DNA of 64,000 nucleotides from a virus. Made by a program: the position numbers and the translations under genes. The stretch spans positions 41,388 through 105,387 of IMG/VR virus record IMGVR_UViG_3300035670_000075. The stretch is one strand, 5' to 3'. The notes below the pieces were generated by a model. It did no database searches and was not told the origin of the DNA. It saw only the letters and a list, made by a program, of their open reading frames with translations. Of this stretch, positions 21,850 through 63,938 are shown in pieces (positions within the stretch are counted from its first letter, which is position 1; the number at the start of each line of letters is the position of its first letter).

Positions 21850-21920
21850 AATATTTCTACTGGAGTCTAGGTTGCAATGGATACCATTCTTGTGTTGTGC
21901 ATCTTTATTTGTGGAACGGT

Positions 21921-21944
21921 GTCGGCTGTACCGCTAAGTTAGGG
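21921..21944 (-). mobile_element. Truncated attC (R'' and L'' half only)
   Basis: Minus strand CCCTAAC-TTAGC-GGTACAGC-CGAC; no matching second half. Confidence 0.6.
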
Positions 21945-21950
21945 GTTATT

Positions 21951-22133
21951 ATGAATGAGAAAGAGTTGCTTGAGATAATCAACGCATACAAAAACGATAT
22001 TTTATCCAACGATGGAGATAAAGCAGATCGTTTTTTAATGATGCTTGCAAAAGAAGTTGAACGTCAAACACGCCATAAAGCAGTGAAAATTGCTTACGAT
22101 ATGGCAGAGAAAATTAGCGATCTGAACTCCTAA
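21951..22133 (+). CDS. Cassette-borne hypothetical protein
   Basis: Starts just after GTTAGGG; stop TAA lies in the TCCTAAC box. Confidence 0.7.
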   Translation: MNEKELLEIINAYKNDILSNDGDKADRFLMMLAKEVERQTRHKAVKIAYDMAEKISDLNS

Positions 22134-22226
22134 CGCCGAGCTAAGCCTACCGGTGCTGCCGGTCAACTTGAACCAAAACCGAAAAATCTCGGCGGCACCG
22201 GGTCGGCCTTGAGCGATAAGTTATGG
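22128..22226 (-). mobile_element. attC site
   Basis: Minus: CCATAAC-5-GCTCAAGG-CCGA...stem...GCTTAGC-TCGGC-GTTAGGA. Confidence 0.85.
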
Positions 22227-22420
22227 CAGATATTACAATGTGCATCAATCAAGCATGTGATATGCGTGAAGACTGCTATAGAGCAAAAGCGACACCTGCT
22301 GTTTTCCAAAGTTTGTGTTTTTTTGCTCCGATAAACGGTAATTGCGAGAATTATATTGAGTATAAGCAGCACACTAAAAAAGCAAAAAATACTGGTATTT
22401 GTAGCCATAACGCTTTATAG
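22223..22420 (+). CDS. Cassette-borne small Cys-rich phage protein
   Basis: MADITMC....C.....CYR; cassette ends GTTATGGC / GCCATAAC are complementary. Confidence 0.7.
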   Translation: MADITMCINQACDMREDCYRAKATPAVFQSLCFFAPINGNCENYIEYKQHTKKAKNTGICSHNAL

Positions 22421-22430
22421 CCAGAAAAAC
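22404..22430 (-). mobile_element. attI-like array-proximal site
   Basis: Minus: TTTTTCTGGCTATAAAGCG|TTATGGC; resembles the other two array ends. Confidence 0.5.
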
Positions 22431-22898: not shown

Positions 22899-24303
22899 TC
22901 AAATCTTCCTCTTCCACGTCGCTTTCGTTGTCATCGTCACTTACCGGATCGATTGAGTCATCCGTCATGTCATCTTCAGGCTGACTATCAACTGACGGAT
23001 CTTGTGGCGGCATTTCCACATCGCTTTCGCCACCGCCAATATCCTCGTAATCATCGCCGTAACGCTCGGCCACTGATTCCGGCTTCAACCTGTACCCCAT
23101 AGCGAACAACTCTTTATCGCGGGCAACGCGCTTGTCCTCGTCTTCAGTAGCAGAAATATCGAAGAAGATTTGCGGCACGCGGCGCAGGTCGCTGGTTCCG
23201 GTATTGAGCAACATCAGCATCGTCAACAATTGATGCCGAGTGGTTGGCTCGTATTGACGGAAATCTGAAACTGCCAAGTCCCACATTTCCGTGTTGCGCA
23301 TATCGCCACCGGAGAATACCCCAGTACGCTCCGCAAAAGCCTTTTCAGAACCAGTCAGCAGGCGGCGAGCCAGTGACCCAAACATATTGTACCAATTGAT
23401 GAAGCTTGCCGTTTGACCTTTTACCGCATCAAGCTCTTTGATGTTCATGCGCTCAGGCATAATGCCGTAAGCCTTTTCGATCATCATTGCCATTGCCGAC
23501 TTGAGTTTGCGCTGGTCGGTTTTCGATGTGCCTTCAGGGAATGTGGCGAACAGTTTTGGTATACCGTAATTGTGTAGGAACGCTTGTCCGTCGCCATGGG
23601 TTTCCATGCGCGATAACCACGCCCAAATCAGCGCCATGAACAAGCCTGACTCATGCGGATAGCCTGGCACTGCTTGGTGCTTATGCACGACCCATCCAAA
23701 CGGCCAAAATGGTTCGTCACCGCCAAGCCGTGTTTTGTAGCGCAACACGTTTTTGTTTTTACGCCACGGCGTCGCGACAGAGATATTGCGCTGCTGAAAT
23801 TCAGGAACCCACACGCCGTCGATTTTCTTCCACCCGCTGCCGCCTTCCTCGTCGGCAATTTCCATCAGCGAAAACCCGGCACCGATACCGGCAGACAAGC
23901 CAAGCAGATAGTCGTCGAAGTTTTTGATTTGCGCCAGGATGTCGCGCAAGATTTTTACGTTCTTTTTGTCTTCGCGCTTCGCCAGTCCACGGTCTACCAC
24001 AAATCCGTTTTCATCGCGGTAGCTGTCCCAGGTGTAAATGTCGAACGACACTGACAGCGGTGCGGTCGCCCGCATGTTAAAGCCCCACATGATGTCGGGG
24101 TCAAAGCGCAGCATCATCCACCACAGGCGGGATAATCTTGTCAGGTCGCCGTCATTGGCTTCGCCGATGATGTTGTAGATGTCGGTTGGGCGTAGATTAC
24201 GGTAAATCTCGCTGTAATCATTCTGCGCCAAACCGAATGAGATGGCTTCGCCGTCGCTTTCGGTTTGCGATTCTTTCAGTGCTTTAATCGCCATTGCTAC
24301 CAA
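22888..24303 (-). CDS. Portal protein, DUF935 / Mu gp29 family
   Basis: A..GDL, G...GFSLMEI, GWVVHKH...GYP..SGL..L.W, F...YGIP; follows terL. Confidence 0.88.
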   Translation of the reverse strand: MVAMAIKALKESQTESDGEAISFGLAQNDYSEIYRNLRPTDIYNIIGEANDGDLTRLSRLWWMMLRFDPDIMWGFNMRATAPLSVSFDIYTWDSYRDENGFVVDRGLAKREDKKNVKILRDILAQIKNFDDYLLGLSAGIGAGFSLMEIADEEGGSGWKKIDGVWVPEFQQRNISVATPWRKNKNVLRYKTRLGGDEPFWPFGWVVHKHQAVPGYPHESGLFMALIWAWLSRMETHGDGQAFLHNYGIPKLFATFPEGTSKTDQRKLKSAMAMMIEKAYGIMPERMNIKELDAVKGQTASFINWYNMFGSLARRLLTGSEKAFAERTGVFSGGDMRNTEMWDLAVSDFRQYEPTTRHQLLTMLMLLNTGTSDLRRVPQIFFDISATEDEDKRVARDKELFAMGYRLKPESVAERYGDDYEDIGGGESDVEMPPQDPSVDSQPEDDMTDDSIDPVSDDDNESDVEEEDLNGE

Positions 24304-25919
24304 TCCTCTTCTTCATATTCATCACCACCGACACCGCCAGTTACAGGTTCAAAGCCGTAATCTTCAAAACCAAGCCCAAGTTCCGACATGTACTTTAGCG
24401 CTTGCGTCATCGAATCAACTTGGTCTTTGAATTGACTCGACGGGAAATTCATCATTTCTTCCTCGAACAACGCCAGCCAAGGCGCATTTTCAGGCAGGAA
24501 AACATTTCCCGCGACGAACTGTGCGGAGATTGATTCTGCGCGCGCCAATTTATCTCCCTGCACATAAAACACGTTACCGCGTTCAACGCGGTTGTCGCTC
24601 GCCTTCTTTGCCACCGGCATCACCGGGACAATATTGAGTGACGGTCGCCGGTCTACACCGAGTTCGTTCAACATCAATCTCCATTCAGCCTCGCGCATTG
24701 AGCGCAGTTGCGAGATAAGTTCCGTCCCGTTTGCCTTGTCCTCAATTAAGATGGCGTCTGGCTTGAACGCATCGGCGCGGGTAATCACCGCCCGCAGCAA
24801 ATCAGAGAACTCGACGCGCTGCCGGTAAACGTCCAGTAGGTAATAGCCGTTGCGCGTTTTTGCCCACTCGGTACACACCGAATATGCGTTACCATCTTTT
24901 TTGCTTTTCGCCGTATCCCACGATGCAACACGCTGGATAATATCACCTATAGAGGATTGATTTCTATATCGCTTGATGTTTACCGCCTTAAATAATCCGC
25001 CACCACGCGGCACTGGACGCTGTTGATGCTGTGCGGCGTAGTTGTATGAACCGAGTTTTAGCTTCTGCCCGTCGATAAACTTGCGGTCGAAGCCGCGCTC
25101 CGGCCACAACAACTCGCCTTCCTGCGTGCGTGGGTCAATAAAGCCGAGCGGGTTGTGGATCATCACCTGCGGTTCGTACTCGGAGGGGATTTTTAGCACT
25201 ACCCAGTTATCCGGCGAGTTGTCCATGAGATATTGCGCAATATCGCGGGTATCGAGGCGCTGCATGATAAGTATTTTGGCGTGTTTTTGCGGGTTGTTGA
25301 TACTTGCTTCCCACGAATTGCGCCACCATTCCACGACATTATCAAAGTCGGCATTGCTGAGTTGACCGATTTTGCGCGAGTCCATGAGGTCGTCGGCAAC
25401 GTTGTAATCACCGCCGTTGCCAAGGATGCCAGAGCCTACCGAAGTGGCGTAGCGGAATCCGCTGTTGTCGTTTTCGTATTTTGACTTGGTATTCTGATCG
25501 CCTGTCAACACGAATTTGTCACCCCAGTAGCGTTGATACAGAGGTGACTGGATGATACGCCGCGAGTCAACGCTATCGCGCAAAGACAGACTGGCGCTGT
25601 GGCTGGCGTAGAGAAACTTGGAGGACGGTACTTTCGTCCACCACCAGGGCGTGAGGCACGCGGATGCCAGCAAAGACTTGGTGTGGCGGCGCGGGATGTT
25701 GATCATGAGGTTGGTAATCTCGAATCGCAGTGCGGCTTCGAGATGCTCACCCACAGCGTAGTGGTGCCAGTTCAACTGCAAGTCCTCGCCACGTACCGCT
25801 TGCCACATCACCCGCATGAACTCGACAAGACTGCGCTCAGCCAGTTCGCGAACGAGGATGTCGCGGTCGGTGCTGAGTAGTTTTTTGGCGAGCGGAGATA
25901 GTCTTGGTTGTTTTTGCAT
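24297..25919 (-). CDS. terL: Terminase large subunit
   Basis: LMINIPRRHTKS, DD, IMQRL, Y.AQHQQRP, SWDTA, IEDKANG, DQVDSMTQAL. Confidence 0.95.
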   Translation of the reverse strand: MQKQPRLSPLAKKLLSTDRDILVRELAERSLVEFMRVMWQAVRGEDLQLNWHHYAVGEHLEAALRFEITNLMINIPRRHTKSLLASACLTPWWWTKVPSSKFLYASHSASLSLRDSVDSRRIIQSPLYQRYWGDKFVLTGDQNTKSKYENDNSGFRYATSVGSGILGNGGDYNVADDLMDSRKIGQLSNADFDNVVEWWRNSWEASINNPQKHAKILIMQRLDTRDIAQYLMDNSPDNWVVLKIPSEYEPQVMIHNPLGFIDPRTQEGELLWPERGFDRKFIDGQKLKLGSYNYAAQHQQRPVPRGGGLFKAVNIKRYRNQSSIGDIIQRVASWDTAKSKKDGNAYSVCTEWAKTRNGYYLLDVYRQRVEFSDLLRAVITRADAFKPDAILIEDKANGTELISQLRSMREAEWRLMLNELGVDRRPSLNIVPVMPVAKKASDNRVERGNVFYVQGDKLARAESISAQFVAGNVFLPENAPWLALFEEEMMNFPSSQFKDQVDSMTQALKYMSELGLGFEDYGFEPVTGGVGGDEYEEEDW

Positions 25920-39477: not shown

Positions 39478-39936
39478 ATTTGGATGACATGACCATAAGA
39501 TGAATCAGTAACAGAAATTCTTGAATATCGCTCACCGTGGAAAACAAAGCGAGCGGTAAAAAAAAAAGGCAAGTGGCTAAGCCGTCATGAGAAGCGCCCG
39601 CCGAGCGCTTGAAATTGCCACATCGGTACGAAGCATCACTGGCTCCAATAGGCAAAGGCGTCTTGAAATGCCGGTGTGTTGCGGTTCGATTCCGTGACTG
39701 TGCTTTTTTTATAGCTATAAGAAGTCAGCAAAATGCATCTCTATTACTGTGGACGTAAAAAATGGCGCGGTTATATGAATCGCGTAACTGAAGCTAGTAT
39801 GCTTGATGCTTTACCATTCGGGAAATTAATTGCGCGGGTAAAAAAGCATCAGGTTTATTTTGTATGTCGTGATGTTTCAAGAAGTCAGCAGGCAATTAAA
39901 TTGAAAAGATTTTGGCGGGCTTCGCGCAGTGAATAA

Positions 39937-40034
39937 AGATAACGCCCGAACTCAGGCGACCATTGCCGCCTATGAGCTTTAATTAACCAATTTAAACCGG
40001 CGGCAATGGGTCGGCCTTGACCGCCAAGTTAGGC
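39937..40034 (-). mobile_element. attC site
   Basis: Minus: GCCTAAC-5-GGTCAAGG-CCGA-CCCATTGCCGCC...GGCGGCAATGG...CCTGAGT-6-GTTATCT. Confidence 0.85.
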
Positions 40035-40053
40035 TTTTGCCTTTAGGATACAT

Positions 40054-40299
40054 ATGAACACAGACGATATAATGAATGAATCTGAGAAGCTTACAGAGGA
40101 ACTTGTAAAATATCTAGCAAAACGTAAAACAAACCGCGCAGTTGCGATCACGTCATTAGTAGATTGCTGCGTTTTTATCGCTACCGAGTCGAAAGATGAA
40201 AAAGTCATTTTCACAATACTTGATATGATTCATAAAAGAGTAGACTCAATTGCCAATGAGCTTTTTGCAGAGCGTAGCATATGGAAAGTTAAAGCCTAA
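40054..40299 (+). CDS. Cassette-borne hypothetical protein
   Basis: Cassette ends GTTAGGCTTT / AAAGCCTAAC are 10-bp complementary; stop lies in TAAC. Confidence 0.75.
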   Translation: MNTDDIMNESEKLTEELVKYLAKRKTNRAVAITSLVDCCVFIATESKDEKVIFTILDMIHKRVDSIANELFAERSIWKVKA

Positions 40300-40349
40300 C
40301 TTGTAGATAGGCAGAATGTTGAATAACTGTTATTTAACATTCTGCCTAT
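40294..40349 (-). mobile_element. attI-like site with 21-bp-arm palindrome
   Basis: Minus: ...CATTCTGCCTATCTACAAG|TTAGGC; palindrome 40307-40349; near-identical copy at 45816-45868. Confidence 0.65.
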
Positions 40350-40354
40350 TACCA

Positions 40355-40915
40355 TCACTGCAACGTCACATCATCAGCACCAAGTCTATCTTGGATGCCT
40401 ATTAACAAAGCCAATTCATCCTGGCTCAACTGCTTCACAAGCTCGCGTTCGTCTTTGACTTTCAACTCACCACTAACTTCAGACCTGCTATCTACGCTAA
40501 GCCTGTCGAAGCGCCCAAACTCATCGCGGTAACGTCGCTCCAACAGCCATGCAATCGGTTGCCACGGTGGAGGCGCGGCTTTCTGAATGACCTCGCGGCT
40601 GAGTAGGTTGCCGTCTGCGTCGTAGCGGCGCTTTTCTTCTATAATCACTTGCTTCTGCGTTGAAGCGTCTAGCATCTTTCTAAGCAGGCTTTTCTTGTAC
40701 TCAAGCTTTGCTTTTTTTATAGTCTCTGAAAACTCCGAAAACACAGGAGACTTTCTTTCATCTCCGCTTTTCATCCAATCATAAAAAGCAGCTTCACTAA
40801 CGCCAGCAGCAGTGCAAGCATCTGCATTTGAAAGCCCTGCCTTAAAAGCCTCCACCAGTATCGCTATAATGTCAGGCGTGAATACCCTCTTCCGCCCGGT
40901 CTTACTCTTCGCCAC
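40355..40915 (-). CDS. Terminase small subunit-like protein
   Basis: GRK..FTP, HTH (AC.AAGVS..AFYDW), WQ..AWLLERRY..EFG. Confidence 0.75.
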   Translation of the reverse strand: MAKSKTGRKRVFTPDIIAILVEAFKAGLSNADACTAAGVSEAAFYDWMKSGDERKSPVFSEFSETIKKAKLEYKKSLLRKMLDASTQKQVIIEEKRRYDADGNLLSREVIQKAAPPPWQPIAWLLERRYRDEFGRFDRLSVDSRSEVSGELKVKDERELVKQLSQDELALLIGIQDRLGADDVTLQ

Positions 40916-41579
40916 TTTGTCTCACCACCTTCTTTCTCTTCTGCACATCGGGGTAGCGCAGAATAATTCCATCTAATTCAGTTTCAAATGCCAGCAAGTC
41001 ATCCATTGGTACACTGACTGTTATCTTAGCAACTTGCTCCATATTGTCGCCGCCACCATCGCCACCGAAGTCATTGCCATCACCGCCGAAGCCATCACCA
41101 AATCCGCTGTTTTGCAAACTCGCAAACAACGCGCCAGTGTCAACTTCAAGTGCCTTCAGTGCATCGGAAAAGCCAGCCTCCAACGCACTCAAGTCCCACT
41201 CGCCACTCACACCTGGTAGTGGGTTGTCGAGCAGTAAGATTTGCTCCTCTTGCGCCGGGGTCAGCCCGCTGCACACAACGGCTGGAGCGTGAGTAACACC
41301 CATGTACAGCACAGCATCGACACGCAAATGCCCGGCGCACGACATCAACTTGCCAGTCCTATCTGACAATATCGGCAATCGATTCATAAACAACTCAGGA
41401 GACTGTTTAATCCCCTCTGCGAGATTATGAATCTCTACCTTGCCGTACTTGCGCGGATTGGCGCTGCCATTGACAGATGTATAGGGGACTATCTCTCTGT
41501 AATCAACCGTCAGCAACTCGCACTTGGCGGAAGCGGTTATTACGTCCAAAAGCTGTTTTTCTGTTTTTTGCTGCGACAT
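40902..41579 (-). CDS. ParB/Srx-like protein
   Basis: NPRK, AGHLRV.A, DN....GEWD...L; sits upstream of terS. Confidence 0.7.
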   Translation of the reverse strand: MSQQKTEKQLLDVITASAKCELLTVDYREIVPYTSVNGSANPRKYGKVEIHNLAEGIKQSPELFMNRLPILSDRTGKLMSCAGHLRVDAVLYMGVTHAPAVVCSGLTPAQEEQILLLDNPLPGVSGEWDLSALEAGFSDALKALEVDTGALFASLQNSGFGDGFGGDGNDFGGDGGGDNMEQVAKITVSVPMDDLLAFETELDGIILRYPDVQKRKKVVRQSGEE

Positions 41580-41667
41580 CTTGCGTTAACGCCGTTGTTT
41601 GTTTACAATATGTTTACATAATCTAATATAGATAGATTATACACAGAATTCACACAGGATAACAAAG

Positions 41668-43173
41668 ATGGGCGGCAGCATAATCACCAAAACCATGTTC
41701 ATGTCAGGCGTGCAATGCACGCTAAAACTATGGCACGAACAGCATGCCGACAGCAGAGAACCGCCGTCAGAAAGCACGCTGCGCGCAATGGCAGAAGGCA
41801 ATGAAGTCGGCGCACTGGCGCGTGCGCAATATCCTGGCGGCGTATTTATCGCCGAAACAAACTACGAAGCCGCTGCCGCTGCGACGCGCGAGGCATACGA
41901 AAACGGCGCGTCGGTAATCTACGAAGCGGCATTTTTGGTAGATGATATGTACGCCAAAGTCGATATTTTGCATATCGACGAGGAAGGCAACGCAACCATC
42001 ATTGAAGTAAAAGCCACTACGTCGGTAAAACCTGAGCATCTTCCAGACGTAGGCTTCCAATGGCACGTTGTCGTAGCGTCTGGTATCAACGTGACTAACG
42101 TATACCTGATGATTCTCGACGACACCAAGCTGTGTCCGTCTGATAACTACTTCAAACTGGAAGATGTCGCAGAGAAAGCGCAAATCTGGAAAGACGCTGC
42201 ACAGTCAAAATCGGTTGCGCTGATGAAAACAGCCAATCAAGCAACACAGCCAACACAACAAATAGGATCACACTGCAACACGCCGTATGACTGCCAATTC
42301 ACCGATAAATGTTGGGCGCATGTACCTGATGAGAATAGCATATTTACAATCCCATTCCTGCGTGGGAGAAAAAAACAAGACCTGATCGACGCAGGAATAT
42401 TCCATATCAACCACTTGCCAACTGAATTTGAGGCAACTGCGGCGCAACAGGTGTGGATTGATGTGGCAACCAGTGGCAAGCCAATCGTCAACATTGCCGG
42501 AATCAAAGACGAGCTATCGCAACTGGAATACCCGCTGGCTCACTTCGATTTTGAGACAATGGCATACGCCATCCCAAGATTTGCCGGGATGAAGCCGTAT
42601 CAGCAGTTCCCATTCCAATTTTCACTGCATGTGCAGAGAAAAAATGGGAAAATAACCCATCAAGAATATTTACATGTCACTCGCGACGACCCGCGAAAAC
42701 ACATTGCAGAAGCCATGCTTGCTTCTATTCCAGACGGCGGACATATCATCACCTGGAACAAACATTTCGAGTCTGGACGCATCATGGAAATGGCAGCGTG
42801 GCTGGAGTCAACCGGAGAAATCTCAAAAGCCAACCAGATGCGCAAGTTCAACGACCGCCTGTGGGACTTGGCTGAGATATTCCGCATCAAAGGCACTGGC
42901 GAAGTGCTGTGGCTGCACCCCGACATGCAGGGGCGCTACAGTATCAAATATGTTCTTCCAGTGATTGCGCCGCACTTGAGCTACAAGGGCATGAAAGTCG
43001 CCAAGGGCGATGAAGCAATGAACGCCTGGGCAAAGCTGATCATGCTTCCAGACGGCAGCGCCGAGAAGCAGGAATTGACATCGGCATTGCTTGCATACTG
43101 CAAGCAGGACACATACGCGATGGTGGTTATTTTGGATTATCTGTGGAGTCTTGTATGGAAAAGCGGTTTGTAG
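41668..43173 (+). CDS. DUF2779 protein (RecB/Cas4-like nuclease + RNase H-like domain)
   Basis: K..F..G.QC...LW, VDIL...IEVKA, C..PY.C.F...CW, DFET, FQFSLH, SIKYVLP, YC..DT. Confidence 0.88.
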   Translation: MGGSIITKTMFMSGVQCTLKLWHEQHADSREPPSESTLRAMAEGNEVGALARAQYPGGVFIAETNYEAAAAATREAYENGASVIYEAAFLVDDMYAKVDILHIDEEGNATIIEVKATTSVKPEHLPDVGFQWHVVVASGINVTNVYLMILDDTKLCPSDNYFKLEDVAEKAQIWKDAAQSKSVALMKTANQATQPTQQIGSHCNTPYDCQFTDKCWAHVPDENSIFTIPFLRGRKKQDLIDAGIFHINHLPTEFEATAAQQVWIDVATSGKPIVNIAGIKDELSQLEYPLAHFDFETMAYAIPRFAGMKPYQQFPFQFSLHVQRKNGKITHQEYLHVTRDDPRKHIAEAMLASIPDGGHIITWNKHFESGRIMEMAAWLESTGEISKANQMRKFNDRLWDLAEIFRIKGTGEVLWLHPDMQGRYSIKYVLPVIAPHLSYKGMKVAKGDEAMNAWAKLIMLPDGSAEKQELTSALLAYCKQDTYAMVVILDYLWSLVWKSGL

Positions 43174-43397
43174 TAACTAAAGGCAACGGGACATTCAAAG
43201 CTGGCGATAGAATAGTCTTTTACAAAAATGGGGACATAGGTTGCGCACAGGCTGGTGGATGGGTTGATAATAAGGACGCAGAAGAAGCTACAAAAGGTAT
43301 GGAATACAGACCTGATGTTGAGTTTGCGAAAAAGAAGATTAAACGCCTATCGGAAGAGATTGCAGAGTTGCGCAGAGAATATGGTGTTACTGAATAA
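43143..43397 (+). CDS. Phage hypothetical protein
   Basis: Overlaps the end of the DUF2779 gene. Confidence 0.55.
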   Translation: MESCMEKRFVVTKGNGTFKAGDRIVFYKNGDIGCAQAGGWVDNKDAEEATKGMEYRPDVEFAKKKIKRLSEEIAELRREYGVTE

Positions 43398-43611
43398 TGT
43401 TATTTTCCTTTGGAGTGAAAAACATGCTTACGACTGTTAGGGCTAGAGTTTGCAGAGTTGGTGAATGGGCAGTGTTCCGCACAAAACAGCATGGATTGGT
43501 CATGCAAATGGGCGACGGTTATATGAAAGCGCCTCTGCAAAAAAAGAATATGTTTAAGTTAAATATCAGCGGTAATACGCCATGCCTGGTAAGGTCGCGA
43601 TGCGATATTAA

Positions 43612-43708
43612 AACTAACGCCAAAGCTCAGGCGACAACCGCCGTCTGTGAACCATAAACAACCAAAAAGCCTAACGGCAGCGGGTCGCGCTCAAGTGTGA
43701 AGTTAGGC
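43612..43708 (-). mobile_element. attC site (more degenerate, array-distal)
   Basis: Plus: AACTAAC-GCCAAA-GCTCAGG-CGAC...GTCG...GTGAA-GTTAGGC. Confidence 0.7.
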
Positions 43709-43722
43709 TGTGGAGATAAGCC

Positions 43723-44010
43723 ATGACTGAGATTGTAAAAGGAATGAAAATTACGCCTTGGGGTACTAAAGATAACCCTCTTATGCAGGGAATGTTTGTT
43801 GGTTGCGTACAATGGGCGATTGGTGATAAAGATATAGTTGAATCGTTCAAGAAAGATACAGGTAATGACCTGAACTCGTTAAGATTTTCAGGTATTGATG
43901 GAATGATTGATGAAGCTACAGGAAGGGCTGGAGAGATGTTTGCAGCCTTTGCGGATTATGTGGCTGAAAATATCTGGGGTGATGAAAACTCGGATATTGA
44001 TGCAGCCTAA
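43723..44010 (+). CDS. Cassette-borne hypothetical protein
   Basis: GTTAGGCTG / CAGCCTAAC ends; RBS GGAG; stop in TAAC. Confidence 0.75.
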   Translation: MTEIVKGMKITPWGTKDNPLMQGMFVGCVQWAIGDKDIVESFKKDTGNDLNSLRFSGIDGMIDEATGRAGEMFAAFADYVAENIWGDENSDIDAA

Positions 44011-44103
44011 CGCCAGAATTAACCCGACATGCGCCGCCAATTAACTAAAACCAAGTCATAAAAGCCCGACGGCGCATGGTCGGACTTGATGGCAAAGTTA
44101 TAC
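44005..44103 (-). mobile_element. attC site
   Basis: Plus: GCCTAAC...CCGACATGCGCCG...CGGCGCATGGTCGG...GCAAA-GTTATAC. Confidence 0.85.
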
Positions 44104-44112
44104 GGAGACTAT

Positions 44113-44418
44113 ATGAGCAAGCAACAATGGGGACATGGATACCACCGTGGTTTTAATAAAGGATACGCAAAGGCGAAGCGCGAAGAGGAAACAAAGCGCG
44201 CTTTCAAAGAAAATAAACATGCTCATTGGGTTGAGATTACTCATTACGGAAGCGAAGGCGTTGAGCCAAAAGACCGCATGTTATGCGGTGATGTTGGTGG
44301 TAGCTGTATAAGCGGAAGCGGTGAAAGCATATGTGCTGGCTATCGCGGTGAAAATGAAACAGGTACACATGTGATATGCGCTGAAAAACCAAGAGCGTAT
44401 AAGCATGATTCCGTATAA
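44113..44418 (+). CDS. Cassette-borne hypothetical protein
   Basis: GTTATACGGA / TCCGTATAAC ends; stop in TAAC. Confidence 0.75.
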   Translation: MSKQQWGHGYHRGFNKGYAKAKREEETKRAFKENKHAHWVEITHYGSEGVEPKDRMLCGDVGGSCISGSGESICAGYRGENETGTHVICAEKPRAYKHDSV

Positions 44419-44511
44419 CGCCAGAACTCAGGCGACCATTGCCGCCTGCAAACTTAAACTTTAGCCAGTTCACTCCGGCGGCAATGGGTCGCCTGGAGTG
44501 ACAAGTTATAT
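44413..44511 (-). mobile_element. attC site
   Basis: Arms nearly identical to the 39937-40034 site. Confidence 0.88.
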
Positions 44512-44524
44512 TGAGGTAACAAAT

Positions 44525-44794
44525 ATGATTAAAAATCTCAGAAATGATTTTATTGAACTGATGTCAGAGTCATATGTAAAAATGCCAAGGCACGACAGAA
44601 TATGTCTGCTCCATGCAATGGACGCACCTGACAATAACCCAGCGACAGGGCTGCCATTTCAAACAGTAGGCGAACTGTTTGGTTCAATGAGTGACGAATC
44701 TTTGGCAACAGTCTATCGCGATATGCGTGATAACGAATTATTAGCAAGTCGGGACAGCTACAGAAAATATGAAGAAGCCATTAAAAATTTGTGA
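44525..44794 (+). CDS. Cassette-borne hypothetical protein
   Basis: GTTATATT / AATATAAC ends; RBS GAGG. Confidence 0.75.
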   Translation: MIKNLRNDFIELMSESYVKMPRHDRICLLHAMDAPDNNPATGLPFQTVGELFGSMSDESLATVYRDMRDNELLASRDSYRKYEEAIKNL

Positions 44795-44898
44795 ATATAA
44801 CGCCAAAGCTCACGCGACCAATACCGCCCGCGATGAGCTTTAATCCGGCACTAAATTTTGTGGGCGGTATTGGGTCGCCGTGGAGCGTAAAGTTAGGT
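44795..44898 (-). mobile_element. attC site
   Basis: Plus: ATATAAC...CGACCAATACCGCCC...GGGCGGTATTGGGTCG...GTAAA-GTTAGGT. Confidence 0.88.
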
Positions 44899-44903
44899 GC
44901 TTA

Positions 44904-45059
44904 ATGAATAAGAATATGAGAGCGGTAGCAAGGAAATCATGCTGGATGGCTAATGGTTTTTTCGGTTCAAACCGCAAAGAAGCCGTTCAAAAAGCAATAG
45001 AAAACGGAGTTAAACCCGAAAACATAAAAGCTAAAAAAGTATATCCATCTGGCAAATGA
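44904..45059 (+). CDS. Cassette-borne 51-aa basic protein (below ORF-track cutoff)
   Basis: MNKNMRAVARKSCWMANGFFG...YPSGK*; GTTAGGTG / CACCTAAC ends. Confidence 0.6.
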   Translation: MNKNMRAVARKSCWMANGFFGSNRKEAVQKAIENGVKPENIKAKKVYPSGK

Positions 45060-45066
45060 ATTTTAC

Positions 45067-45164
45067 ACCTAACGCCTGAGCTAAGCCGCGCTGCGCCGCG
45101 ATGAACTTTATATTAACCTGCTCAAGCCCGACGGCGCAGCGTCGGCTTGAGCGCAAAGTTAGAG
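45067..45164 (-). mobile_element. attC site (textbook layout)
   Basis: Minus: CTCTAAC-TTTGC-GCTCAAGC-CGACGCTGCGCCG...CGGCGCAGCGCG-GCTTAGC-TCAGGC-GTTAGGT. Confidence 0.92.
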
Positions 45165-45241
45165 GTTGACATGGATAGAATCAAGGTAACAAAAGATTGC
45201 ATTAAAGTATATGAGCAGCAAAAAGGTTCAAAAGAATCTTC

Positions 45242-45811
45242 TTACTTATCAAGAAGAAGACTTCTAATTTCTTTGAAATCGTCATCATCAAGAAAGAAAA
45301 ACTGACATGATTTTGATTTCTTTTTATTTGACATAATCGTTAATCCTTTATATATGCTTAACGATTGTGTCTTTTTGGCATCTGCACTTGATAATATGCT
45401 AACTTTATTAAATCCGTTTTTTTCAAAAAAATGTTCTTTACCAATTGAAGATATGAAACATATAGGAGAGAATCTTTCTTTCACTGTGCTAAGCACAAGA
45501 CTACCAATACCTTCCATTCTGTATTTTTCTTCAACATATATGCGATGTAGATAGAATTTATCTCCAGGAAAATGAATAACCATAGCATAAGATATTGGGT
45601 TTCCTTCATAAAGGTAAGCTATGATTTTCAAATTACCAACACGAAATAACTCTTTAAATATATTTGATATATAATTTAAAGCATTATCATAATTTATGTT
45701 TTTATCAATTGATAGCCCAATAATCATTGGAGTTATAAGAGCATCCTGAAGCATTATCTCCGATTCTATTTTTATTATCTGGTTTATATCTGATTGACTA
45801 AGCTCACTCAT
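45242..45811 (-). CDS. GNAT-family acetyltransferase (AT-rich cassette)
   Basis: YLHRIYVEEKYRMEGIGSLVL, FFEKNGF; begins GTTAGAGGTAAATATG. Confidence 0.85.
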   Translation of the reverse strand: MSELSQSDINQIIKIESEIMLQDALITPMIIGLSIDKNINYDNALNYISNIFKELFRVGNLKIIAYLYEGNPISYAMVIHFPGDKFYLHRIYVEEKYRMEGIGSLVLSTVKERFSPICFISSIGKEHFFEKNGFNKVSILSSADAKKTQSLSIYKGLTIMSNKKKSKSCQFFFLDDDDFKEIRSLLLDK

Positions 45812-45815
45812 ATTT

Positions 45816-45868
45816 ACCTCTAACTTGTAACTAGGCAGAATGTTAAATAACTGTTATTCAACATTCTG
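45816..45868 (-). mobile_element. attI-like site with 16-bp-arm palindrome
   Basis: Minus: ...CATTCTGCCTAGTTACAAG|TTAGAGGT; palindrome 45836-45868. Confidence 0.65.
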
Positions 45869-45880
45869 TATAATACAACC

Positions 45881-46207
45881 ATGTCACAATCATTCCTATC
45901 AGCCAACGCCAGGGCGCAGCGCAGGCACAAAGCCAAACGCGCTGCGCTAGGCTTCTCTCAGCTTAATTTCTGGATTCACGAAAAAGACCGTGACATTCTG
46001 GCTTCGGCACTGAAAAAATACAACGCTGACAAGCTTGAAACGCTGGAGCGGCGCATGAGCTTAATCATTCGTGTCGCCAACGACGAAACTGAAATAACAC
46101 TGCACGAAGCATCAGAAATACAACAAAAGATGTTTCCAGAAAATAAACCGCTACCAATAAAAAAAACATGGTGGCAGAAAACCAAAGCATGGCTTGGCGT
46201 TAACTAA
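45881..46207 (+). CDS. Small RHH-like protein with amphipathic C-terminus
   Basis: RAQRRHKAKRAALGFSQLNFWIH; KKTWWQKTKAWLG. Confidence 0.6.
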   Translation: MSQSFLSANARAQRRHKAKRAALGFSQLNFWIHEKDRDILASALKKYNADKLETLERRMSLIIRVANDETEITLHEASEIQQKMFPENKPLPIKKTWWQKTKAWLGVN

Positions 46208-46286: not shown

Positions 46287-46310
46287 GTATTATTTTTATA
46301 GTTGACACAG

Positions 46311-47387
46311 ATGGAAACTGAAGATTTAGAAGAAAATCATGAATCGGATACGCGCGAAAGACTTCTCAAGAAATACGCCGCAAAATCCATACGGAAAAAG
46401 ACGCGGCAAGACTACGAATCAAGACTTAGGCTTTATCAAGCGTCAGGTAGAAAACTTCCAGCAACTGACGTTGAAATCGTAGAATACATCGAATCGGCAA
46501 AAGTCATGTCGCGTAAGAAAAACGGCGAATACATTACCAAAGACAGCTTGCTTGCTGTGTCATCAGTCCAATCAATAGTTGCTGCTTTGTCGTGGTGGCA
46601 TCAAGAAAATAACCACCAAGACCACACAAATAGCGCGCTGGTTAAAAAAGCCATTGCAGCAATCAAGCGCGAACGCGCAAAACCGCAAGCGCAAGCGCGA
46701 GCAATAAAAACTGAAGAAATTGCAGCAATCACTGAAACGCTACTCGAACTACAAACAACCCAAAATGCCGCAGACAATCTCCGCGCAATCCGCGATCTGG
46801 CTTTTATCCTCGCGCTGTTTTACACCGGGTGCAGAGAAAGCGAAATCCGTCACCTCAGAGTTGATGATCTGGAGTTTACAGATGACGGTCTAATCGTAAA
46901 AATCAGAAAGTCAAAAACAGACGACGGAACTGGAAGAAACACGCCAATCCCATACCGCGATGCTAACGGACAAAAAATACTCGCGGCATACGCGATCTCT
47001 GATTGGATTGAAAAGGCTGGAATAAAGTCTGGCTTCGTATTCAGAACAGTAGACCAATACGCTGTCGTCGGTCGTGGGAAAAAGCCGCTAGACTATGGGT
47101 TTTCTTCACGGACACTACTCAAATACGCAGAGATGTCAGGCGTATCAATAGACGGAATCAGCACACACTCATTCAGAGCCGGGTGCGCAACAGCACTAAA
47201 TTTAAGCGGCGCAGGTATTGCCGAGATAGCGCAGCACTTAGGTCATCGCTCAACGGCGTCAACGATGAAATACTTACGCGCCGACGCATCAACCAGACTT
47301 AAAGACGCACCAACACGGAAAATTGCGCAGCCAAAGAAAACTTTTACGCAGATAGTTTTCACGTTTATTGCACGTTTATTTTCGTGA
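46311..47387 (+). CDS. Cre/TnpS-like tyrosine recombinase
   Basis: RD.A......TGCRESE, KSKTD, HSFRAG.AT, GH.S...MKY; no IntI-specific insertion. Confidence 0.9.
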   Translation: METEDLEENHESDTRERLLKKYAAKSIRKKTRQDYESRLRLYQASGRKLPATDVEIVEYIESAKVMSRKKNGEYITKDSLLAVSSVQSIVAALSWWHQENNHQDHTNSALVKKAIAAIKRERAKPQAQARAIKTEEIAAITETLLELQTTQNAADNLRAIRDLAFILALFYTGCRESEIRHLRVDDLEFTDDGLIVKIRKSKTDDGTGRNTPIPYRDANGQKILAAYAISDWIEKAGIKSGFVFRTVDQYAVVGRGKKPLDYGFSSRTLLKYAEMSGVSIDGISTHSFRAGCATALNLSGAGIAEIAQHLGHRSTASTMKYLRADASTRLKDAPTRKIAQPKKTFTQIVFTFIARLFS

Positions 47388-51642: not shown

Positions 51643-51721
51643 GTTATTGAAAGTTAAAATTTATTTATTTATTTAATTTATTATTATTTTTATAAGTATA
51701 TGATTGATGTAATGTTTATGC

Positions 51722-51944
51722 TTTTGTCGCAGACTTGATGCAGAGTTGTGCAACTAAGTCATTGAATGTAGTAATGATGCAAATATTCACGCATTTTTTC
51801 TCGCGTATGAGTTTATTTTTTTTTGATGCGCCAAGCGTCGTGTTTTCACATGTACGCGCACGGGAGGTTTTTACATCAAAAAACTGCTTCATTACTACAA
51901 TCAATAACTTAGTTGCACGGCTTTGCGACATCTTTGCGACAAAA
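51722..51944. repeat. 59-bp imperfect inverted repeat with IHF-like sites (candidate replication origin)
   Basis: Arms 51722-51780 and 51886-51944 (48/59 match by hand); AT-rich flank; downstream of the primase-helicase. Confidence 0.65.
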
Positions 51945-52006
51945 CCACTTTTATTACTTCTTTCAATCAGTTGCGATTTCATTTTTAGGCTTTGTTTACG
52001 GTGAGG

Positions 52007-56441: not shown

Positions 56442-56512
56442 TCTCGTTCCCACGCCACTATTCTCGTTCCCACGCGCCGAGTGGGAACGAGAAGTGATCG
56501 GCGCGTGGGAAC
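56442..56512. repeat. REP-like TCGTTCCCAC/GTGGGAACGA repeat cluster
   Basis: Nested inverted copies between convergent genes. Confidence 0.75.
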
Positions 56513-56517
56513 TAGAT

Positions 56518-56979
56518 TTATCGTGGCATCGCGCCCTGCACCGCCTTAATACCATCCAGCGCCGAAGCAATATCCGCTTGCAAATGCTGGATCGCCTCCA
56601 GCAACGCGCCTTTGGCTGACTTCGGCAGTTTTTCGCCAAGCGCCGTTGCCGAGCCGCTCAGATTACCAAGGTCGTCGCTCAACTCGCCCAGCGTCAACTT
56701 AAATTCTGTATTGGCGTTGCAATACGCCAAATAGAATTTAACATGCGTTGACACCTCGCCCTGGATATACGGATTCATCAATATGAATCCCGCAATGTTG
56801 ATGTAGTAGCCGTCATTGCCCGGCGTAATGGCGACGTGCTGTAGGTCTTGCGGCGACAGTTTTGCCAGCAGCTTGCCGACCGAGGCATTGACGTTGCCGA
56901 GGTCGCGCTTGAATTCGCACGCAATGGTGCGGGTGTGGGTGACGGCAACGCCGTCTTTTAGTTCAACTAACTCTCGCAT
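56518..56979 (-). CDS. Rha-family regulator-like protein
   Basis: LVELKDGVAVT....IA.EF.R...NV...V.KL. Confidence 0.7.
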   Translation of the reverse strand: MRELVELKDGVAVTHTRTIACEFKRDLGNVNASVGKLLAKLSPQDLQHVAITPGNDGYYINIAGFILMNPYIQGEVSTHVKFYLAYCNANTEFKLTLGELSDDLGNLSGSATALGEKLPKSAKGALLEAIQHLQADIASALDGIKAVQGAMPR

Positions 56980-57123
56980 GTTTACACCTGTTGTTACTGT
57001 GATTTTCCTTTAGTGTATGTCATTTTTTGCGTGTATTCAACATGTGATAAATATGTGGTTTACTCATATATTGACATATCATCAACCATCGTTCCCGCTC
57101 GGCGCGTGGGAACGCGGAAAAAC

Positions 57124-57224
57124 ATTGTCTGAATCAGGATTTTCAGGATTAAAAGATTCACAGGATAAACAATGCGCTTTAATCCTGAAAATCTTAAAAT
57201 CCGGTAAATCCTGATTCAGACAAT
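57124..57224. repeat. MITE-like palindromic element with 19-bp terminal IR
   Basis: ATTGTCTGAATCAGGATTT...AAATCCTGATTCAGACAAT with internal AGGATT sub-repeats. Confidence 0.8.
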
Positions 57225-57307
57225 AAGTATTTTCGCAGCCTCCCCGCATGGCAACAAAAATAAAAAATGCTGTATCATGACAACTCCAATCACAACAGGA
57301 GTTATCC

Positions 57308-57706
57308 ATGAACAAGCTATTTGCACTACTCATTGCAGCCACCCTGTCAGGCTGTGTCACCGTGCCGTCCGGTGCGCCGGTTAAACAACTGCTCGGCAAA
57401 CTGAAAGTAACCAAGTCCACCAACGGCGTCGCCTGCAAAATCGACGCGACGGTGGAAAATCTCAATCAACACCAACTTAAGCCAGTGTTGGAGTGGGTGA
57501 TTTATGACGTGGACGGCAATACCATGACCAGCGGCACGACCCCGTATGATCTGATTGACGCCGGGAAGAACCAGCAGAAAATGCTAACGCTGGTCATGGG
57601 CAGTTGCGACAGGCTCGGCAAGCTGGCGGTGAATAGTGCGCGAATGCGCGGGCTTGACGGTATCCCGATTGCTGGCGTAGAGGGCATGAATGCGGTGTGG
57701 AAGTAG
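57308..57706 (+). CDS. Lipoprotein (moron)
   Basis: Signal peptide with lipobox LSGC; RBS AGGAG. Confidence 0.8.
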   Translation: MNKLFALLIAATLSGCVTVPSGAPVKQLLGKLKVTKSTNGVACKIDATVENLNQHQLKPVLEWVIYDVDGNTMTSGTTPYDLIDAGKNQQKMLTLVMGSCDRLGKLAVNSARMRGLDGIPIAGVEGMNAVWK

Positions 57707-57726
57707 GTATTTTTTTCGTTCCCAAT

Positions 57727-57842
57727 CATCTCGTTCCCACGCGCCGCGTGGGAATGCCGAAGCACCGCGCTGCGGTGCGTACCGTAAGCCGCTCCGCAGC
57801 GCGGAGATTCCGCGTTCCCACGCAGCGCGTGGGAACGAGATG
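57727..57842. repeat. REP/MITE-like element with 17-bp terminal IR and internal hairpins
   Basis: CATCTCGTTCCCACGCG...CGCGTGGGAACGAGATG. Confidence 0.8.
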
Positions 57843-57963
57843 TGATGCTATATAAATACGTCATCTCACCATATATCCATATCATACATAAAATCTTCTT
57901 GAAATCACCTCGTAAATTGCGTAAAATTTTCAGCATCAAATGGCAACAAGCACAGGTGCAAAT

Positions 57964-63863: not shown

Positions 63864-63912
63864 TCACCGCAGGCGCGGTGATTCCGCATTAAATTTTTGC
63901 GCCGCGTAAAGC

Positions 63913-63938
63913 GGTCGGACTGAAGCGCCAAGTTAGGT
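63913..63938 (-). mobile_element. Truncated attC half, distal end of a probable fourth array
   Basis: Minus: ACCTAAC-TTGGC-GCTTCAGT-CCGAC; followed on plus by GGAGG and ATG 63958. Confidence 0.6.

Follow-up and report, generated by a model that had tools for sequence, protein, structure and literature searches.

A repeated attI-like element with a long palindrome at the heads of cassette arrays in an IntI-free phage genome

The window analysed here, a stretch of 64,000 nucleotides, forms the right-hand part of a 105,387-bp IMG/VR virus record (IMGVR_UViG_3300035670_000075), which originates from a subsurface metagenome and is classed as linear and approximately 95% complete. It carries several arrays of gene cassettes delimited by attC sites. 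Two of them, referred to as array A (at 40 kb) and array B (at 44-46 kb), end in two copies of the same palindromic element, which resembles the attI sites of integrons in its position, its junction with the first cassette and its layout.

Cassette arrays and their heads

Using a profile built from six attC sites of the phage, we detected seven full attC sites, all in a single orientation on the minus strand (22130-22225, 39938-40033, 43614-43707, 44006-44102, 44414-44510, 44796-44897 and 45068-45163). The same search returned half attC sites, consisting of the plus-strand right arm alone, at 21913-21943 and 63908-63937, which form the far ends of an array at 22 kb and another at 63.9 kb, respectively; the latter runs past the end of the record. 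The 22-kb array, with its attC site at 22130-22225, is situated between the portal and protease genes, and the other arrays lie at the ends of plus-strand operons. Array A comprises a single cassette (40034-40299) with an 81-aa open reading frame (ORF) on the plus strand, whose attC site (39938-40033; 86.6 bits in nhmmer) carries its bulges in the right arm. In array B, five attC sites (68-82 bits each) delimit four cassettes with plus-strand ORFs. The first cassette of this array (45164-45823, minus strand) encodes, in the canonical sense orientation, a GNAT acetyltransferase (45242-45811), identified by matches to the Pfam families Acetyltransf_7/1/10 and to phrog_10454 (1.6e-22), with its ribosome-binding site (RBS), AGAGG, immediately past the crossover point. 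With five attC sites within 43614-45163 in a record free of IntI, array B constitutes a cluster of attC sites lacking an integron integrase (CALIN). The cassette genes are small orphans, some with matches to phage families (phrog_10454, 5692 and 20586), and most of them are antisense to the polarity of the attC sites. Mirror cassettes of this kind occupy 43723-45059 of the window and are also seen at 1396-1668 and 2191-2439 of L009, a bacterial integron described below, in which the cassette with the most phage-like attC site is one of them.

Arrays A and B terminate in a 62-nt direct repeat (40296-40357 and 45820-45881; 85% identity) that is present in exactly two copies in the 105,387-bp record. 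Its 35-nt core, GGCAGAATGTT[G/A]AATAAC-T-GTTATT[T/C]AACATTCTG, is matched solely at 40310-40344 and 45834-45868 in the whole record, with zero matches expected by chance as judged from 100 shuffles of the window. The core is a near-perfect palindrome of 33-43 bp, spanning 40307-40349 in copy A (21-nt arms, centre at 40328) and 45836-45868 in copy B (16-nt arms, centre at 45852). Its lone arm mismatch reads G.T in A (40321/40335) and A.C in B (45845/45859) on the plus strand, and the single-stranded DNA folds reach z-scores of -7.75 and -3.6, respectively, relative to shuffled sequences. A GTTRRRY box is kept in both palindrome arms (GTTGAAT and GTTAAAT), and pairing is not restored there. On the minus strand, element A (40297-40357) consists of the palindrome (40349-40307), an L box (GCCTATC), a spacer (TACAA) and an R box (G|TTAGGC). 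Element B (45821-45881) likewise comprises the palindrome (45868-45836), an L box (GCCTAGT), the spacer TACAA and an R box (G|TTAGAG). On the plus strand, both copies are directly preceded by a sequence ending in TAAC (40297-40300 and 45821-45824), with the crossover falling between 40300 (G on the minus strand) and 40299 in element A and between 45824 and 45823 in element B. The right flank of element B carries TGTATAAT (45867-45874), 7 nt 5' of the ATG of orf108. The elements are not attC sites, given that the attC profile had no match at either copy in nhmmer (E <= 10) and that neither copy contains a GTTA at the other end of the palindrome. The original prediction, which held that the same element closes two arrays and that the arm mismatch is swapped between the copies, is borne out on both counts; the intervals that it gave (40297-40349 and 45821-45868) cover the core, but the similarity extends about 10 nt further to the right.

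Integrase-mediated insertion at G|TT leaves the opening bases of a cassette paired with the R'' box of its own attC site, as seen at the cassettes that border the heads. In array A, GTTAGGC (40028-40034) faces GCCTAAC (40294-40300), and the cassette start TTAGGC matches the R'' box of its attC site (GCCTAAC, 40028-40034). At the GNAT cassette, GTTAGAG (45158-45164) faces CTCTAAC (45818-45824), and the start TTAGAGG matches the attC site at 45068-45163. In the 22-kb array, GTTATGGC faces GCCATAAC. Thus, all three heads display a G|TT crossover and a first cassette that opens with TT and matches its own R'' box. The two copies of the element and their exact junctions with cassette arrays confirm that the element is real.

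The head of the 22-kb array (22404-22426, minus strand) reads TTCTGGCTATAAAGCG|TTATGGC and forms no significant hairpin in DNA folding. This finding agrees with the earlier statement that a related end, TCTGGCTATAAAGCG|TTATGGC, closes this array. The notion of several landing pads, by contrast, holds for the full element at two sites, with the third head sharing only the L-R core. The motif CTG[C/G]CTA-N5-8-GTTA has three occurrences in 105 kb, each at an array head and each on the minus strand, and the same scan found no unoccupied copy of the head in the record. Because the 22-kb head has the core without the palindrome, the L-R core is the common denominator of the heads and the palindrome an addition.

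Array polarity and the layout of bacterial attI sites

By alignment with the aadA1 attC site, we take the extrahelical bases to lie on the R''-L'' arm, so that the canonical top strand presumably corresponds to the minus strand here. In plus-strand folds of the phage attC sites, the single-base bulges are always located in the 3' (right) arm. In canonical attC sites, the extrahelical bases determine which strand is recombined (PMC2727003; PMC8946536). A scan of 185,579 species genomes with an attC-derived pattern yielded five matches. One of them, L009, is a 5.4-kb contig of a Giesbergeria metagenome-assembled genome (MAG) that contains a complete integron, with an IntI scoring 427.6 bits (cut-off 265) and about a dozen attC sites, one of which reaches 76 bits with the phage profile. 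In a second locus, L049, from a Thiomargarita MAG, an IntI of 505.5 bits adjoins attC sites of the phage attC family. Both loci have the attC orientation and the bulge side found in the phage, with intI and attI to the right. The bulge side, together with the orientation relative to intI in L009 and L049, confirms that the element sits where attI belongs, at the upstream end of the array by attC polarity, as the original prediction had proposed.

The attI sites of these two integrons were then compared with the phage element. On the plus strand, the L049 site reads TATAAC|TAAAA-TTAGACACCCTAAAAGGCGTAA-tttt-TTACGCCTTTTATGTGTCTAA, with arms of ~20 nt that start 5 nt from the crossover and a fold z-score of -7.19; the L009 site reads CTAAC|TAGGA-TTAGCCGACTGC-(13 nt)-GCAGTCGGATAA, with 12-nt arms, and the phage element CCTAAC|TTGTAG-ATAGGCAGAATG...CATTCTGCCTAT. 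The inverted repeat of the bacterial sites begins 5-6 nt from the crossover, and the outermost part of a repeat arm is the L box in all three cases (minus strand: TCTAA in L049, GCTAA in L009 and CCTAT in the phage). Like the phage element, the bacterial sites occupy the same array end relative to attC polarity, show a TAA|C crossover on the plus strand, and have a YCTAW L box, 7-12 nt from the crossover, as the outer end of inverted-repeat arms of 12 to ~20 nt. Unlike the phage element, which lacks an intI gene, they lie 115-175 bp from a true intI; moreover, the palindrome sequences are unrelated, and the L box of the phage is shifted by one base (CTA at -11 to -9, versus -10 to -8 in five bacterial attI sites). 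Judged by eye, GCCTATC-TACAA-GTTAGGC in element A presents a candidate L box inverted relative to R at the spacing of a simple site.

An exploratory test, whose inverted-repeat criterion was set after two examples had been seen, examined the region upstream of intI in 29 further loci from the same bacterial order for a TAAC and, no more than 12 nt after it, an inverted repeat whose arms measure 8 nt or more. This layout was present in 9 of the 29 loci, as opposed to 2 of 29 for the reverse orientation and 23 of 290 shuffled sequences (8%; p ~0.0008). The comparison suggests that the L box of many chromosomal attI sites lies within an inverted repeat, an arrangement of which a limited literature search found no description. 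In several of the 29 loci, the RBS and ATG of the first cassette come after the junction. Five loci (L025, L039, L041, L043 and L045) share the attI consensus TAAC|GTAAAGTAGAC upstream of intI, followed by inverted and direct copies of GGTGTATA and TTTTATCGGG, which may act as accessory sites.

The original prediction had drawn on a comparison with attI1. The string it used, GATGTTACGCAGCAGGGCAGTCGCCCTAAAACAAAGTTA, is genuine: at least 5000 plasmid records contain it at 100% identity. The phage element and attI1 correspond in 8 of 14 positions before the crossover and 6 of 6 after it (GCCCTAAAACAAAG|TTAGGC versus TGCCTATCTACAAG|TTAGGC), place CCTA equally far from the crossover and have extra ATGTTR-containing repeats upstream of the core. 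Within attI1, AGGGC of DR2 pairs with GCCCT of the L box. In contrast to the phage element, the accessory sites of attI1 are direct repeats rather than a palindrome, and attI1 has intI1 and the Pc promoter as its neighbours. These direct repeats promote recombination between attI and attC (PMC8946536).

Candidate enzymes, competing explanations and neighbouring features

No IntI is encoded in the 105,387-bp record, and an adjacent cognate intI gene, as expected of an attI site, is thus missing. The record specifies two tyrosine recombinases, both far below the cut-off of the IntI family TIGR02249. One of them, a Cre-like protein (46302-47387, plus strand), matches PF00589 at 1.9e-20, scores 28 bits against TIGR02249 (cut-off 265) and has Cre and Tre as its closest solved relatives (~1e-6). 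Its gene is divergent from array B and located 434 bp from the palindrome, in the position that intI takes in integrons. The enzyme has three homologues among 5.8 billion proteins, and its distant relatives (29-37% identity) showed no attC or palindrome context in a metagenome scan. Directly downstream of palindrome B, orf108 (45881-46207, plus strand) encodes a small basic protein without a match in Pfam, NCBIfam or the PDB. Weak leads in the Atlas point to MazE-like and RepB-RCR_reg proteins, and a ribbon-helix-helix fold is a tentative candidate on the same leads; a role as the DNA-binding partner of palindrome B is possible. The protein has one homologue (94% identical).

Both the attC family and the attI layout match those of real IntI integrons, which makes a host IntI the most economical catalyst, and we infer that the elements are recognized by IntI and that this enzyme comes from the host. 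To the overall reading of elements A and B as attI-type heads used by a host IntI, we assign a probability of about 0.55. It builds on what is observed at the locus, namely the position of the elements, their exact junctions, the array polarity, the lack of an IntI gene and a layout that they have in common with real attI sites. Furthermore, IntI1 recombines attC sites borne by phages (PMC9892861). The original idea of integrase-less attI pads that borrow the host IntI draws support from the attI-end position, the G|TT junction and the lack of IntI, but no host or matching host attI could be found to back its second half.

Several considerations weigh against this reading. An attI site is, as a rule, specific for its cognate IntI (PMC8946536), and it is the Cre-like recombinase that occupies the place of an intI gene. 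The L box of the phage is just loosely similar to the bacterial YCTAW motif, given its one-base shift, and the layout test has an exploratory character. Two arrays finish distally in half attC sites, which cannot be produced by integrase insertion at attI. The palindrome was not found in exact-pattern scans of IMG/VR, the 185,579 species genomes and JGI metagenome contigs; the element and the phage attC family had no match in 30 IntI loci from the bacterial order to which the Giesbergeria genome belongs; and neither the host, nor its IntI, nor a matching host attI was detected in the genomes and loci scanned. Relatives of the phage were not found in IMG/VR by means of the recombinase, a DUF2779 protein or the terS-like protein, and no empty site, cassette variant or relative turned up for comparison in the searches made. 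Sister strains are represented by two proteins, P0003 (93% identical) and P0006 (94%). The comparison with integron attI regions and other phages that the original prediction had suggested thus gave no match in the 30 IntI loci, the 185,579 genomes and IMG/VR.

Other searches bear on the host and the surrounding community. Among 401 genomes of the class concerned, 165 carry IntI (a tally that includes the unpublished genomes G295 and G027, from neither of which a sequence claim is drawn), and none contains a related prophage detectable via terL. No phage records resembling the element region were found, and in the Giesbergeria and Thiomargarita MAGs the L-R motif occurs at the rate expected by chance. 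Three runs of one subsurface study yielded contigs with further attC sites of the phage family; no empty site, inversion or deletion between the copies was seen in them, which is not evidence of absence. In contigs from two runs of the same study, the right arm of the attC site at 44060-44100 is joined to other left arms and other downstream cassettes. The phage attC family thus circulates in that subsurface community.

The palindrome could instead be a native phage element, serving as a hairpin at operon ends and, in copy B, as an operator or promoter of the operon containing orf108 and the Cre-like gene, with cassettes arriving by rare IntI secondary-site events or as a block and without selection for an attI function. 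We consider this account unlikely, although reconstructed empty sites do place the palindrome no more than 20 nt from the end of the last plus-strand coding sequence, orf67 in the case of A and an 86-aa ORF in the case of B, whose stop codon would be the TAA inside TTGTAACTAGG. In addition, copy B abuts the flanking sequence that ends shortly ahead of the start codon of the apparently leaderless orf108, and a phage attC cluster described by Qi et al. is bordered by a terminator with inverted GTTRRRY boxes (PMC9892861). However, neither copy is trailed by a T run or listed in a terminator scan, and copy A lies outside any promoter context. Moreover, two independent arrays meet the element at the identical base, the third head has the L-R core, and real attI sites show the same layout. 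The AT-rich stem, the missing T run and the absence from the terminator scan do not fit the classic intrinsic terminator, with its GC-rich stem and trailing T run; the earlier proposal that the 40.3-kb copy doubles as a terminator hence fails by this consensus, though its position in the empty site would suit a 3'-end hairpin. The kept GTTRRRY boxes would fit duplex half-sites better than a stem, as far as can be judged from two copies.

It is more doubtful still that the phage runs the arrays itself, with its Cre-like enzyme using the palindrome in the manner of a lox site (arms of 13 nt flanking AACTGTT) and orf108 as a helper. In phage P1, cre is close to loxP, and here, too, a palindromic site of ~33 bp is found ~430 bp upstream of a gene for a recombinase whose closest solved relatives include Cre, divergent from array B and in the usual place of intI. 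The 13-nt arms of a lox-type site are present, but the candidate spacer is almost symmetric, with only its centre base breaking the symmetry, where a lox-type site has an asymmetric spacer of 6-8 bp, and the site is joined to attC cassettes, which is unlike the situation in P1. Its two copies, in direct order and with the same spacer, flank the terS-like gene, which is presumably needed for packaging, and recombination between them would delete 5.5 kb including this gene. The attC sites are of the IntI type common to real IntI integrons, the third array head is free of a palindrome, and the enzyme has few homologues, the distant ones lacking attC or palindrome context. A self-contained platform, in which the Cre-like recombinase, guided by palindrome-bound orf108, inserts IntI-type attC cassettes at the phage heads, is a doubtful proposition; if true, it would mean that an enzyme outside the IntI family handles folded attC sites. 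Slightly less probable again is the view that the elements are fossils. In this case, the phage would have acquired part of a bacterial integron platform, attI with its cassettes, in a single event of illegitimate recombination, and this part would later have been duplicated and fallen out of use. The 85% identity of the copies, the half attC sites at two distal array ends, which represent non-integrase rearrangements, and the lack of site variation in the three metagenome runs all speak in its favour. Against it, the cassettes beside the two copies are unrelated, their genes match phage families (phrog_10454, 5692 and 20586) and are oriented for phage transcription, and the similarity ceases about 13 nt beyond the palindrome in each copy, where no remnant of an intI-proximal region was seen. 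As for other types of site, a LexA box (CTGT-N8-ACAG) was rejected by eye, and a ParB centromere was set aside since there is no ParA among the annotated ORFs, for which no dedicated search was made, and since the ParB-like gene adjoins the terS-like gene.

The surroundings of the arrays show several other features. The terS-like gene (40355-40915), beside the ParB-like nuclease gene, is located 14 kb from terL (24297-25919), and a block of plus-strand DNA-metabolism genes lies between the two. Rfam and ARAGORN reported nothing in the window, including a gene-free stretch of 150 nt (39555-39705) that contains a tRNA-like T arm (GGTTCGATTCC) and two CTTGAAAT loops. Beside a gene for a RecD-like helicase, an AT-rich gap contains an inverted repeat (51701-51965) whose 81-nt arms are 75% complementary. 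Five copies of the palindromic repeat CGTTCCCACGCGNCGNGTGGGAACG, along with a 46-nt inverted repeat, are found at 56465-57846 and 57124-57224; this cluster may represent an origin or a cluster of operators.

A proposed docking site for integron cassettes

If elements A and B are attI-type heads of a temperate phage, used by a host IntI, they would act as double-stranded docking sites, composed, on the minus strand, of a palindrome with the L box (GCCTAT or GCCTAG) at its outermost position, the spacer TACAA and the R box G|TTA. An IntI-type integrase, most probably provided by the chromosomal integron of a host, would act on the folded plus strand of attC in circular cassettes and so integrate these cassettes at G|TT. 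By analogy with DR1 and DR2 of attI1, the palindrome may serve as an accessory or architectural site. The pads are situated at the 3' ends of plus-strand phage operons, and cassette genes antisense to attC polarity would therefore be read from phage promoters. This model predicts a host attI site with TTCTGCCTA-N-ACAAG|TTA, or at least with a palindrome-embedded L box.

IntI-free attC clusters in phage genomes have already been published (Qi et al., 2023; PMC9892861). As in one of those CALINs, which is bordered by a hairpin with inverted GTTRRRY boxes, similar boxes are present in the palindrome arms described here (GTTGAAT and GTTAAAT). In contrast to the published clusters, the same border element is found at two arrays, with an identical junction base and a layout that matches attI. 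The novelty lies in a repeated and precisely used attI-like head in an IntI-free phage, as well as its match to the palindrome-embedded L box of real attI sites.

So far, attC clusters of phages have been described just as integrase-less leftovers. Should the reading as attI-type heads be true, the phage would be equipped for cassette uptake whenever the integrase of its host is expressed. Incoming cassettes would land at fixed sites at the ends of operons, and integron cassettes would thereby gain a phage route between bacteria.

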